Source of the DNA: a virus
Taxonomy: Duplodnaviria > Heunggongvirae > Uroviricota > Caudoviricetes
Virus record (IMG/VR): IMGVR_UViG_3300031867_000007
Location: 1-64,000 of that record
Length of the DNA stretch: 64,000 bases
Strand: one strand, 5' to 3'
Below are positions 10,364 to 13,323 of this stretch, one piece after another. The position numbers and the translations under genes were made by a program. Within the stretch, counting starts at the first letter, position 1; each line of letters opens with the position of its first letter. Under the pieces are notes generated by a model. It was not told the origin of the DNA. It saw nothing but the letters and a program-made list of their open reading frames with translations, and made no database searches.

Positions 10364-11470
10364 ATGGAAGAAGAATATTATACAAATATATTTTATTTTG
10401 ATAGAATAAATAAAATTGGCGGGGTTGAGACATTTTTTTATGAAATAGCAAAAAAATATTGCGATAATGATATTACAGTACTTTATTCTTATGGAGATAT
10501 GAATCAAATAAGAAGATTAAAAAAATTAATTAGGGTAAAAAAATATACTGGACAAATAATTAAATGTAAAAATGCTTTTTTTAATTATAGTCTAAAACCA
10601 ATAGATAATATACACGCAGAAAAATATTATGAAATTATTCATGCTAATTATGAACAAATACATATGAAACCTAATGTACATTCTAAAATTGATGAATATA
10701 TTGGAGTCAGTCAAGATGTTTGCGATGCTTTTACAAGAATTACTAATTTACCTTGTACATTATGTTATAATCCTATAACAATAGAAAAACCTAAAAAAGT
10801 TTTATATCTTATTTCTGCAACAAGATTAACAAAAGAAAAAGGAAAAGAAAGAATATTAAAATTTGCAAAAGCTTTAGATGATGCGGGGATACCATATATT
10901 TGAACTATATTCACTAATGATACTAAAGCCATTCAGCATCCTAGAATTATATTTATGGAACCGCAATTAAACATAAGAGATTATATAGCTAAATCAGATT
11001 ACACAGTACAATTAAGCGATACAGAAGCGTATTGTTACACAATGATAGAAAGTTTAATGCTAAAAGTTCCAATTATAGTAACACCATGACCTGTATTAAA
11101 AGAATTAAATATTGATGAAAAATGTGGCTTTATACTACCTTTTGATATGAGCAATATTCCTGCAAAAGAAATATATGACAAACAATTTAATATAGAATAT
11201 GAGTCTCCTAAAGATATTTGAAACAAATTTATTTATCATACAAAATCTACTTATAAAGAAGAATGTGAAGCATTATATTTAGTCGAAGCCTTAGATACAT
11301 ATCAAAAGAAAAATTTTATAGATATAGAATTGGGCTTTAAACCAAGTCCTGGTTCTAGATGAATTGTAACAAAAGATAGATTAGATATGCTATTAGGAGA
11401 AAATGACACTCAGGAAAAATATGCAAAACTTATTAAAAAATTAGATAAAAATGAAGCAGAGGTGATTTAA
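10364..11470 (+). CDS. Family 1 (GT4-like) glycosyltransferase
   Basis: The C-terminal EX7E-like motif EAYCYTMIESLMLKVPIIVT is present. The frame continues through the TGA at 10901 to the TAA at 11468-11470. Confidence 0.65.
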
Positions 11471-12225
11471 TGAATATATTAAGCTTAGATTTATCAACGA
11501 AAAGTGAAAAACAAATAACTGATAAAAAACAACTAGATGAATATAAAAATAAATTTGTAGTTTATTTACTTATTTTTCCCAATAATAAAATATATTGTGG
11601 ATATTCTTCAAATATAAAAAAAAGATGAAGGAATGAAGAAGGGTATAAAAATCAGTTAGTTTATAGAGCTATTAAAAAATATAAATGGATAAATATTCAA
11701 AAATATATTTATAAAAGTTTTAATAATAAACTAGAAGCTTTACAACTTGAATATAATATAATTAAAAAATATAATTTACAAAATCAAAATATTGGCTATA
11801 ATATAGCAGACGGCGGCGGAGACCCTCCGCATGGTAAAAAACATTTAACTGAAAAAGGTCGACAACAGTTAATACAAAATGGAAAGAAATTAGCTCAAGA
11901 AACTTGATTAAATCCAATTAGAAAACAATACGCAATTCAAAGAATGAAAGAAGAAACGCATAAAAAACGTATGTTACTATCAAAAACAGAACTAAAAGAA
12001 AAATACGGAAAACATAATATAGGTAGAATTCCTTCAAATGCTAAACAAATATTACAAATAGATTTACAAACTAATAAAGTATTAAATGAATATCCTAGCG
12101 CAAGACAGGCCGCTTTAGCATTAGGACTGGATGCAACTGCAGGAAGTAATATTCAAAGAACTGCTCGAGGGATTGGCAAAAGTGCTTATGGATATACTTG
12201 GAGGTGAAAAAATGAATGTACTTAG
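11470..12225 (+). CDS. GIY-YIG homing endonuclease with a C-terminal NUMOD/IENR-type DNA-binding motif
   Basis: Carries a GIY-YIG core (VVYLLIFPNNKIYCGYSSNIKKRW) and a C-terminal NEYPSARQAALALGLDATAGSNIQRTARGIGKSAYGYTW segment. The first 12 codons copy the ruvC start. Confidence 0.7.
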
Positions 12226-12718
12226 TCTAGATCTTTCAACCCATTCTAGTGGTTGAGCGTATTTTGAAAAAGAAGTGCTTAAAGATCATGGTTGTATTAC
12301 TTCTGCTTCAACAGATTTAATTAAAAGAATATATAAAATGACAGATGGAATTGCAGAAATTCTGAATAAATATAATGTGGATAAAATAATAGTAGAAGAA
12401 GTAAGACCTGAAGGCGGATATGGAGTAGGGAATACAAAAACGCATCGAGCTTTAATGTGATTACAAGCGGCAACCGCTTTTCTAATACATGATAAATATT
12501 CCAATATAGAAATAGAATATATATATCCAAGCTCTTGACGTGCTACGCTAGGTATAAAAAATGGAAGAGGAATAAAAAGAGTTTCTCTCAAAGAACAAGA
12601 CATAGAATATGTAAAAGAAAAATATAATATTATAGTTAATGATGATGAAGCAGATGCAATATGCATAGGTTTATCACAATATAAAGAAAAAGATAATAAT
12701 GAAATAAATTGAGAATAA
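12212..12718 (+). CDS. ruvC: RuvC-like Holliday junction resolvase
   Basis: Catalytic-pattern residues are present (LDLST, IIVEEV, NDDEADAICIG). Three TGA codons are read as Trp. GGAGG RBS. Confidence 0.65.
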
Positions 12719-12721
12719 AAA

Positions 12722-12750
12722 AAGAGATGGTGTTATTAACCATCTCTTTA
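12722..12750. terminator. Bidirectional hairpin terminator at the convergence of the plus and minus blocks
   Basis: The stem agagatgg is paired with ccatctct. Confidence 0.45.
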
Positions 12751-13323
12751 TATTTCTGATACTGTTTTAACTTCGGTTAATTGTGGAAATCTAGTTGTAA
12801 TTCATCTCTTTGCATTATTATCGGCAACTATAATTCTACAATTATCAGGAATCCCATTAAACATACTTGTAGATGTAGTAACATTATTAAAATTAAAATT
12901 GCGTATGTCTAAATTTAATAGAGCTCTACAATTTGCAAACATATAACTCATATCCGTAACTTTGGATGTGTTAAAATTGCTTAAATCTAAGCTTTTAAGT
13001 TGATTACAAGAGTAAAACATATATTTCATACTTGTAACATTACTTGTATTAAAATTAGATACATTTAATTCTTGTAATCCATTACAATAATAAAACATCA
13101 TATCCATTATAGTTAATTTAGAAGTATCTAAAGATGTCAACTCTTCATTTAGTTCAGCCCCTTTATACTCTCTAAAAGATATAAATCTAGGAGCATATAA
13201 GGTAGAAATTGCATCTATTGCTTCACTCATATCTTCAGGTTTATATTTAGCAGTACCACCAATCTTATTACGAATACTATTTGCAATATTAGTTAAATAA
13301 TCTTTTGTTACTAATACTTTCAT
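12748..13323 (-). CDS. BspA-type leucine-rich repeat (DUF285-like) protein
   Basis: Repeats of MxxMFxxCxxLxxLDLSNFNTSxVT are visible. The frame reads through the TGA at 12802 to the TAA at 12748. Confidence 0.55.

Follow-up and report, generated by a model that had tools for sequence, protein, structure and literature searches.

It is likely that the 5′ end of a ruvC-like gene in the phage DNA analysed here (a stretch of 64,000 nt, hereafter the window) has received a mobile cassette, inserted in ruvC codon 13, in which a GIY-YIG homing endonuclease gene precedes a substitute ruvC 5′ end made up of a Shine-Dalgarno (SD) sequence, a start codon and the first 13 codons. Upstream of the insertion, the 12 resident codons remain in place, still preceded by the native SD and coupled to the gene before them; fused in frame to the endonuclease, they contain its only start codon. 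Because the replacement start comes with its own SD, a full-length resolvase is still encoded and splicing is unneeded.

The duplicated ruvC start and its empty site

Genetic code 4 (TGA = Trp) is used by the phage, as ORFs of at least 100 aa make up 22,314 aa under table 4 versus 14,019 aa under table 11. MAG bin labels name Bacilli, Clostridia, Anaeroplasmatales and Acholeplasmatales, labels of a kind that is unreliable for phage contigs. Downstream of a promoter-like site, one operon comprises two glycosyltransferase genes, the endonuclease gene and ruvC, in that order (Table 1). The endonuclease ORF contains three in-frame TGA codons and ends with a TAG at 12223-12225, which places its stop inside ruvC, as a preliminary description of this DNA had noted; the two ORFs overlap by 14 nt.

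Table 1. Coordinates of the features discussed in the text (window positions)
Feature	Position	Strand	Basis or remark
Promoter-like site, TTGACA-17-TATAAT with TG	9511..9539	+	12/12 consensus match; consensus match only
Glycosyltransferase-like gene, 5′ neighbour	10364..11470	+	TAA stop overlaps ATG at 11470 (TAATG)
Resident ruvC SD GAGGTGA, now predicted to serve the endonuclease ORF	11459..11465	+	Identical in L001
Resident ruvC stub, codons 1-12 MNILSLDLSTKS, in-frame fusion to endonuclease	11470..11505	+	Identity to L001, L105
GIY-YIG homing endonuclease ORF, 251 aa, code 4	11470..12225	+	Pfam, PHROGs, family-invariant residues
Putative inserted cassette, 745 nt: endonuclease body plus replacement ruvC SD, start and codons 1-13	11506..12250	+	blastn breakpoints versus L001
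GIY-YIG catalytic domain, residues 29-105	11554..11784	+	Pfam PF01541, E 4.8e-8, 33.6 bits (cut-off 22.6)
Putative C-terminal NUMOD/I-HmuI-like DNA-binding module, residues 206-244	12085..12201	+	Weak: PF22083, 19.6 bits (cut-off 27)
Trp-Arg-Trp codons TGG AGG TGA, endonuclease C-terminus and ruvC SD	12199..12207	+	Conserved in family
Replacement ruvC 5′ end, putatively cassette-borne, codons 1-13 MNVLSLDLSTHSS	12212..12250	+	24/36 identical to L001
RuvC-like Holliday junction resolvase gene, intact, 168 aa	12212..12718	+	Pfam, PHROGs
Terminator-like hairpin, bidirectional, closing the operon	12721..12749	.	–

The preliminary description had also proposed that the endonuclease opens with a copy of the first 12 codons of ruvC, and alignment bears this out: with the two ATGs in register, the coding 36 nt match at 24 positions and the peptides (MNILSLDLSTKS versus MNVLSLDLSTHS) at 10 of 12 residues. 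The differences are mostly synonymous (TTA/CTT, AGC/AGT, TTA/CTA, ACG/ACC and AGT/TCT). The 5′ edge of the duplicated block is the SD, which reads GAGGTGA in both the stub and the downstream copy, and beyond the block identity is at background level (20/54 after codon 12 and 15/46 upstream of the SD). Local alignment of a ruvC 5′ probe with the 400 nt upstream of the endonuclease core gave a score of 30, against a maximum of 24 in 200 shuffles. Ahead of the GIY-YIG domain, no in-frame start codon other than that of the stub is present. A full tandem duplicate of ruvC, later disrupted, was rejected as the source of the repeat, since only 33-36 nt are duplicated.

L001 and L105 are two relatives without the endonuclease; both are collinear with the window at about 95% identity, and both lack positions 11506-12250. 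The blastn breakpoints are sharp to the nucleotide (L001 up to 5996 corresponds to the window up to 11505, and L001 from 6001 to the window from 12251), so that the cassette stands in place of 4 nt, TCGC, within L001 ruvC codon 13. The adjoining flanks show no excess divergence: mismatches per 60 nt are 1, 0 and 2 on the left and 2, 1 and 5 on the right, not above those of the farther flanks. The same TAATG junction precedes the intact ruvC start of both relatives, and by this comparison the TAATG at 11470 is the native translational-coupling junction of ruvC. Three further lineages have counterparts without the insertion (L018 versus L147; L010 versus L002 and L067; L013 versus L167). Two earlier expectations, namely that only one ruvC start is present in relatives lacking the endonuclease and that the insertion left an intact ruvC, thus hold in L001, L105 and these three pairs, and comparison with endonuclease-less relatives places a clean insertion within the first 13 codons. 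Taken together, the alignments point to a precise presence/absence polymorphism with an intact empty site among close relatives. The closest pair is L018 and L147, whose flanks are 98-99% identical around an insert of about 670 nt; 33 nt of L147 (2500-2532) match either side of this insert, and the difference between the two would be a recent event.

Origin of the two copies

The upstream copy is identical to the ruvC start of L001 at 36 of 36 positions (35/36 for L105), which makes it the resident one. The duplication suggested by the preliminary description therefore stands, but its assignment of the divergence to the copy on the endonuclease does not. In all five lineages with a comparison, the stub is closer than the downstream copy to the ruvC start of the endonuclease-less relative (36 versus 24, 31 versus 28, 32 versus 21, 29 versus 24 and 27 versus 22 identical positions), and the stub peptide of each lineage follows that lineage's own ruvC start. 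Recoding of the downstream start is heaviest at codons 11-13, where AAA AGT TCG has become CAT TCT AGT. Moreover, a 20-mer covering codons 10-16, ACCCATTCTAGTGGTTGAGC, is common to the downstream copies of the window and of the related cassette of L010, a phage whose RuvC is only 73% identical to that of the window. The diverged, functional downstream start most likely arrived with the cassette; as the nearest sampled endonuclease is 75% identical and no close donor is at hand, its import is argued from parsimony.

The alternative that the resident 33-36 nt were duplicated on the spot by a repair or replication error, with the downstream copy then diverging where it lay because change protected it from self-cleavage and from deletion between the repeats, seems improbable. 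It would account for L018, in which the two copies are identical at 30 of 33 positions and both near the endonuclease-less L147 (31/33 and 28/33), as in a fresh duplication, and also for flanks that show no co-conversion. Against it, the downstream copy of the window differs from L001 at 12 of 36 positions next to flanks that differ by only 4-6%, which is too much change in place for the time available, and 20 nt of it are shared with a cassette from so different a phage. In addition, GIY-YIG enzymes leave 2-nt overhangs, not the stagger of about 33 nt that such a duplication needs. A passage on SegB (PMC2330249) supports this overhang length. For the scar as a whole, for which the preliminary description had offered two origins, co-conversion in the sense of break repair with capture of a donor segment fits better, and target-site duplication as known from transposons is unlikely.

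A further alternative, to which we give rather little credence, is that the arrangement is ancestral and vertically inherited, and that endonuclease-less relatives such as L001 are secondary losses. Divergence between lineages is similar for the endonuclease (65-75% aa identity) and RuvC (61-73%), which also fits long vertical co-inheritance within some lineages, and L107 and L112 resemble losses that retained a cassette-type start. On the other side, L001 and L105 carry stub-type sequence to codon 12 and then TCGC-GGG, which is absent from the window, and they therefore cannot derive from recombination between its two repeats. Nor does loss sit well with the near-identity of L018 and L147 outside the insert, or with the rarity of the endonuclease: among 116 distinct ruvC loci collected by way of RuvC, about 1-3 carry it, and it is scattered over lineages.

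The endonuclease and the resolvase

The window endonuclease is 100% identical to database protein P0001. It keeps all the family-invariant residues (Y32, Y42, G44, R52, E94 and N111), and the conservation of the catalytic Tyr, Arg, Glu and Asn supports its prediction as a GIY-YIG enzyme. PHROGs label it 'homing endonuclease', with a profile match that starts at residue 26. In an AF2 model, long helices (128-183) lead into a small beta/helix module (194-246), and residues 1-11 have a pLDDT below 50, i.e., predicted disorder. Foldseek matches were all weak, to the DNA-binding part of I-HmuI (best match 1u3e_M, E 5.9e-3) and to Hpy188I, and a profile search against PDB sequences gave no match. 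Relatives in deposited phages are at most 33% identical, and at the DNA level the 3-kb region had only short and distant matches among deposited phages. A single-protein IMG/VR scan gave no match; an alignment-based scan retrieved only relatives at 45% identity or below.

The downstream gene encodes a predicted resolvase. Its product scores 23.1 with Pfam DUF3882 (cut-off 22.1) and 20.6 with RuvC, just under the cut-off of 22.2, and PHROGs annotate it as 'Holliday junction resolvase' (PHROG 827 and 159, E 1e-19 and 1e-17). D7, D144/D145 and D148 are invariant in alignment A1, in keeping with the acidic residues of the RNase H-like RuvC fold. Residues 14-168 are 97% identical to L001.

An endonuclease clade linked to ruvC

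Four other phage lineages have the same layout of stub, endonuclease and ruvC, and every homologue looked up lies directly upstream of ruvC, touching or overlapping it, including the IMG/VR relatives at 40-45% identity. The whole clade is thus specialised on ruvC, either free-standing just upstream (L020, L022, L023 and L185-L193) or fused to a stub. The TGGAGGTK SD is conserved across the family: the last endonuclease codons, Trp-Arg-Trp (TGGAGGTGA), form the SD of the replacement ruvC start, and the spacing between TGGAGGTGR or TGGAGGTTT and the ruvC ATG is constant in all fused and free-standing members examined. The fusion point varies by clade, after codon 7, 11 or 12. In a simple neighbour-joining tree without support values, the junction classes STKS|xE, STK|FLYQP and STK|xYVVY and the protein P0049 fall in separate parts, among free-standing forms, which suggests that stub fusion arose at least four times. 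L185 retains an unfused 7-codon stub. A nucleotide search for stubs upstream of the free-standing L020, L022, L023 and L187-L189 found nothing significant; these would be either true intergenic insertions or cases of decayed stubs.

The preliminary description had reasoned that the same peptide on unrelated endonucleases would indicate a shared domain. The peptide recurs only on homologous endonucleases, all directly upstream of ruvC. It is very unlikely that it is a functional N-terminal module of the enzyme (such as a RuvC-like strand on which activity or regulation depends) and no scar at all. Such a role would fit the start M-x-I-L-S/A-L-D-L-S-T-K of about 20 of 53 homologues and the conservation of the peptide despite synonymous change. 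Since each copy evolved in a genome of its own as a working ruvC start, conservation at the protein level is to be expected in any case. The free-standing members lack the peptide with all invariant catalytic residues intact, and the shifting fusion point and the match to each host phage's own ruvC speak against a module, as do the predicted disorder of the peptide and its position outside the endonuclease profiles of Pfam and PHROGs.

Intron-encoded enzymes are commonly continuous in frame with the upstream exon, as the endonuclease here is with the 12 upstream codons. Even so, a self-splicing intron or intein-like insertion with these codons as exon 1 is the account we consider least credible. 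The downstream gene comes complete with an SD, an ATG and all of codons 1-13, a set that would be redundant under splicing; there are no intein motifs, and the endonuclease stop codon is in a frame other than that of ruvC. A group I intron-encoded endonuclease was rejected, as no Rfam family matched 11000-12900 even at E<=1.

Target site and proposed mechanism

The cassette reading also draws on the ruvC codons next to the insertion. RuvC residue 11 is not Lys at 9 of 10 endonuclease-plus loci, a set that includes two near-duplicates, versus 10 of 116 endonuclease-less ones (Fisher 5e-8, kinship ignored); beside an endonuclease it is His or Arg. Positions 1-2 of codon 11 are the best discriminator between the two kinds of allele, and insertion junctions cluster at codons 11-13. 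The endonuclease-less L107 joins a native 5′UTR (14/17) to a cassette-type coding start (31/36) and may represent a footprint allele. It is proposed that the enzyme would cut endonuclease-less ruvC alleles at or next to codons 11-13, and that repair of the break would be templated by an endonuclease-plus genome. If the upstream gene is not homologous, microhomology may serve to join the left end to the endonuclease 5′ region, which would result in the stub fusion. Once formed, the stub would provide ruvC homology on both sides of the cassette, much as in introns and inteins, and this two-sided homology would permit homing into phages with different upstream genes. The replacement start would escape self-cleavage because codon 11 has changed from Lys (AAA) to His/Arg (CAT or CGN) and the neighbouring Ser codons are recoded; His/Arg at residue 11 is accordingly read as a putative mark of self-immunity. 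The downstream copy of L018 retains Lys11, and for its endonuclease a precomputed Pfam GIY-YIG hit is lacking; either this enzyme can do without recoding, or it may be decaying.

In six endonuclease-less ruvC alleles, a single additional C at the junction gives rise to CGG, which is the codon least used in these genomes. The extra C lies at codon 13/14 (AGT TCG C GGN TGA or AGT TCT C GGT TGA), the position of the inferred endonuclease cut site. The downstream frame is under purifying selection. These alleles probably use a programmed +1 frameshift, for which the candidate stretch is ACGAAAAGTTCGCGGGTGAGCG. An IMG/VR pattern scan for further +1 alleles found only two, both already known, and the window has 0 tRNA genes, hence no phage-borne frameshift or suppressor tRNA. 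A tentative and rather doubtful suggestion is that the extra C is a 'savior indel', by which the target is destroyed and ruvC is kept by programmed +1 frameshifting at CGG.

Relation to known systems and significance

The closest precedent is the 'gene hybrids' of fungal mitochondria, in which an endonuclease gene (mORF) is accompanied by a duplicated C-terminus (Allomyces macrogynus atp6; Glomus atp6, atp9, cox2 and nad3; PMC3630166), and of which the phage case would be the 5′ mirror image. In both, an endonuclease ORF inside a conserved gene brings a foreign terminal segment that keeps the gene complete, the displaced native segment remains adjacent, and the reading frame of the endonuclease can continue that of the host gene. 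Both also have a native copy that is near-identical to a close relative and an inserted copy diverged in DNA and conserved in protein, and by its sequence the window arrangement qualifies as such a hybrid. Unlike the mORFs, it duplicates the 5′ and not the 3′ end, the promoter-proximal SD and start of the displaced piece have become the endonuclease's translation start, the endonuclease 3′ end supplies the SD of the host gene, and the setting is a bacteriophage with a reassigned stop codon instead of a mitochondrion. No phage description of this layout was found in the literature searched.

Passages on the free-standing T4 endonucleases SegB, SegF, SegG and MobE describe intronless homing (PMC2330249, PMC2790892, PMC2988022). 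As in the T4 Seg case, a GIY-YIG (Seg-type) gene adjoins a conserved target gene and is sporadic among relatives, and break repair with co-conversion is presumed; the free-standing clade members listed above fit this pattern directly. The T4 Seg/Mob genes lie between genes with their own starts, whereas the window endonuclease lies inside its target's coding sequence, is fused to the target's first codons and supplies a replacement start; moreover, the window flanks show no co-conversion tract. In the T4 mobA/gene 60 cassette, an endonuclease accompanies a 50-nt translational bypass element in a topoisomerase gene (bioRxiv 10.1101/2022.08.31.505936). There too, the endonuclease travels with a sequence that allows expression of the interrupted gene and also alters the carrier's target site, but the T4 gene is divided between two ORFs and depends on ribosomal bypassing, whereas ruvC remains whole thanks to its duplicated, recoded 5′ end. 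The +1 alleles, with their putative link to the endonuclease, would be a closer analogy to gene 60 bypass than the recoded duplicate start is. Regarding the protein, I-TevI and I-BmoI share the N-terminal GIY-YIG domain, the long helical linker and the size of about 250 aa; their small C-terminal DNA-binding module and their targets in conserved catalytic-site codons of a DNA-metabolism gene would have putative counterparts here; the window enzyme differs in having no intron and no solved structure detectable by sequence.

By such an arrangement, a free-standing homing endonuclease would be able to reside within an essential coding sequence with neither intron nor intein, by taking over the start of that gene and providing it with a recoded spare. 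The endonuclease could then do without a conserved gene order, and its presence in phages with two different reassigned stop codons could be accounted for in this way. For this new family of compact GIY-YIG enzymes, the predicted recognition/cleavage site is ruvC codons 10-14. On the practical side, the 'chimeras' at endonuclease N-termini are a potential source of error in gene calling and phylogeny, as are the foreign codons with which ruvC begins. The putative +1 frameshift site is recurrent at the same position as the insertion. If the savior indel proves true, it would be the phage counterpart of the relationship between T4 gene 60 bypass and MobA, and the same codons would have met with two solutions, an endonuclease-borne recoded duplicate start and a recoding site in resisting genomes; if linked to the endonuclease, it would provide a second natural case of translational recoding evolving in a homing-endonuclease arms race.

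Insertion of the Endonuclease at the ruvC Start

At 28.5% GC the window is AT-rich, and it has the gene content of a tailed phage. Counting ORFs no shorter than 100 aa, table 4 yields a total of 22,314 aa and table 11 one of 14,019 aa, and TGA, read as Trp, outnumbers TGG in the long ORFs (127 versus 71 codons). In the structural gene block, two adjoining minus-strand ORFs are presumed to encode tape-measure or tail proteins.

Features of the window, and equivalent or extra-C sites in related loci (handles beginning with L)
Feature	Position	Remark
Promoter-like site	9511-9539	operon head; consensus match
Two glycosyltransferase-like genes		follow the promoter-like site
Endonuclease ORF	11470-12225	GIY-YIG domain at residues 29-105
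Endonuclease C-terminal module		NUMOD/I-HmuI-like, weak match
Trp-Arg-Trp/Phe codons, ruvC SD	12199-12207	equivalents in L010, L013, L015, L018, L020, L022, L023, L185-L189
ruvC-like gene	12212-12718	RuvC-like resolvase
Hairpin	12721-12749	operon end
ORF of 1,493 aa	33952-38433 (-)	structural block
ORF of 2,791 aa	38503-46878 (-)	structural block
Extra C, L001	5997-6003
Extra C, L105	~296-303
Extra C, L044/L155 and L153	2497-2503
Extra C, L126	827-833
Extra C, L267	2497-2503

The preliminary description held that the endonuclease opens with a diverged copy of the first 12 ruvC codons, and alignment of the two 36-nt segments bears this out: 11470-11505 and 12212-12247, aligned at their ATGs, have 24 of 36 nt and 10 of 12 amino acids in common, with mostly synonymous differences. 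The match score of 30 exceeds that of all 200 shuffles (maximum 24). The common block includes the Shine-Dalgarno (SD) sequence GAGGTGA, and the likeness ends after codon 12. Since residues 1-11 are disordered in the predicted structure (pLDDT 88) and the family profiles begin at about residue 26-29, the RuvC-like peptide is not a domain of the enzyme.

Endonuclease-less relatives, proposed earlier as the place to look for a single ruvC start, revealed a clean insertion. Both L001, an IMG/VR contig, and L105, a metagenome contig, are collinear with the window at ~94-96% identity. The breakpoints place L001 5996 at window 11505 and L001 6001 at window 12251, so that 745 nt of the window stand for 4 nt of L001. 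The L001 ruvC start matches the endonuclease-fused copy at 36/36 positions versus 24/36 for the copy on the window's ruvC, so the upstream copy is the resident start, which has stayed where it was and retains both the native SD and the TAATG coupling to the gene before it. In the window, a diverged replacement has become the start of the functional ruvC. Because mismatch density beside both junctions is no greater than farther off, the foreign tract is the cassette itself (11506-12250).

Recurrence across Lineages

The same clean insertion is seen in three more endonuclease-plus/minus pairs, the clearest being L018 versus L147, whose flanks are 98-99% identical and in which 33 nt of L147 match either side of the insert. 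In five of five lineages, the fused stub is nearer than the downstream copy to the start of the endonuclease-less relative. A protein search returned 55 homologues of the endonuclease, ~20 of which begin with a RuvC-like peptide joined after STKS, STK or LSLD; the remainder have ordinary short N-termini. Fused or not, the endonuclease lies directly upstream of ruvC in every homologue contig fetched, and likewise in IMG/VR relatives at 40-45% identity; ruvC linkage was looked for among more distant GIY-YIG genes and none was seen. In a neighbour-joining tree of endonuclease cores, built without support values, the fusion classes occupy separate places among free-standing forms, which implies at least four independent fusions. 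In addition, L185, of a distant lineage, carries an independent stub: seven unfused ruvC codons (ATGACAATTTTAGCTCTTGAT, MTILALD; ~1900-1925) precede, by ~90 nt, a free-standing endonuclease with its own SD, and the ruvC downstream of it also begins MTILALD (~2659-2680).

Carriers L015-L017, L022, L023 and L007 have another reassigned stop codon, TAG (Gln) in place of TGA (Trp); since these and the window all have the endonuclease-ruvC module, it crosses phages that differ in stop-codon reassignment. Within the TAG=Gln lineage, the ruvC body of L015 (3752-4240) is ~70% identical to that of its endonuclease-less relative L096 versus 75-82% for the upstream genes, a hint that co-conversion extended farther there than in the window. 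Separately, in L064 (1150-2500) ruvC is preceded by a tandem pair of different GIY-YIG genes, and in L053/L159 (1600-2370) a GIY-YIG gene of another family (~28% identical) lies ~150 nt upstream of a ruvC with Lys at residue 11. The ruvC 5' region seems to draw more than one endonuclease lineage.

The endonuclease is rare among 126 distinct ruvC 5' regions (116 endonuclease-less, 10 endonuclease-plus). Residue 11 is Lys in 106 of the 116 endonuclease-less alleles versus His or Arg in 9 of the 10 endonuclease-plus ones (Fisher 5e-8, counting loci regardless of phylogeny), and positions 1-2 of codon 11 are the best discriminators; the contrast may reflect immunity to self-cleavage. In four endonuclease-less loci, L107 (2484-2540), L112, L074 and L270, a native 5'UTR is followed by a start of the cassette type (STHS; ...CATTCTAGTGG...); L107 matches the native 5'UTR at 14/17 positions and the cassette-type coding start at 31/36. 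Such alleles resemble footprints left either when recombination between the repeats removes the endonuclease or when break repair copies the recoded start alone.

Extra-C Alleles of ruvC

A single extra C separates Ser13 from Gly14 (TCG C GGN TGA or TCT C GGT TGA) in six endonuclease-less alleles drawn from different datasets; the site is equivalent to the window junction 11505/12251. The 13 N-terminal codons and the 155 codons past the shift are both intact, and where pairs have the insertion in common, their divergence shows strong purifying selection (L001-L105: dS 0.14, dN/dS 0.02; L044-L153: dS 0.42, dN/dS 0.14), which excludes sequencing error and pseudogene decay. No in-frame start could yield a protein with the catalytic Asp7. 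In the 0 frame the extra base creates CGG, which the window uses less than any other codon (2/18,017), and these alleles probably use programmed +1 ribosomal frameshifting at a 'hungry' codon. They closely parallel the +1 sites of glass-sponge mitochondria, where a rare CGG or UGG stands directly 5' of GGA (PMC5009743). The extra base falls among the 4 nt for which the cassette is substituted, and it may plausibly be connected with endonuclease cleavage or resistance.

Proposed Mechanism, Precedents and Dual-Use Shine-Dalgarno

It is proposed that the enzyme would cut naive ruvC at about codons 11-13 and that the right end would pair with homology in the donor's ruvC body. Where the gene upstream is not the same, the left end would keep resident codons 1-11 or 1-12 and be joined near the endonuclease 5' end, in-frame joins supplying the resident SD and ATG to the endonuclease. 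After fusion, ruvC homology would flank the cassette on both sides and it could home whatever the upstream synteny, which would explain why the STKS|xE junction is common to several lineages, with a resident stub particular to each.

The nearest precedent is found in fungal mitochondrial mobile ORFs, which bring in a foreign copy of the gene's C-terminal segment when they insert and leave the native C-terminus beside them (Allomyces atp6; Glomus atp6, atp9, cox2 and nad3; PMC3630166). The window shows the mirror image of this layout, at the 5' end, with two added consequences for translation signals. Intronless homing as in T4 accounts for the free-standing clade members (PMC2330249, PMC2790892, PMC2988022), and the other example of an endonuclease accompanied by a device to keep its target gene expressible is the T4 mobA/gene 60 cassette (bioRxiv 10.1101/2022.08.31.505936). 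The literature searched contained no phage account in which the 5' end of a gene is duplicated and an endonuclease is fused in frame, and no close homologue of the endonuclease was found among deposited phages.

The SD position of ruvC is occupied, in every family member examined, by the codons for the endonuclease's C-terminal Trp-Arg-Trp/Phe (TGGAGGTGR or TGGAGGTTT). This sequence is dual-use, serving as both conserved endonuclease C-terminus and ruvC SD, and it links the endonuclease to ruvC even where the endonuclease is free-standing.
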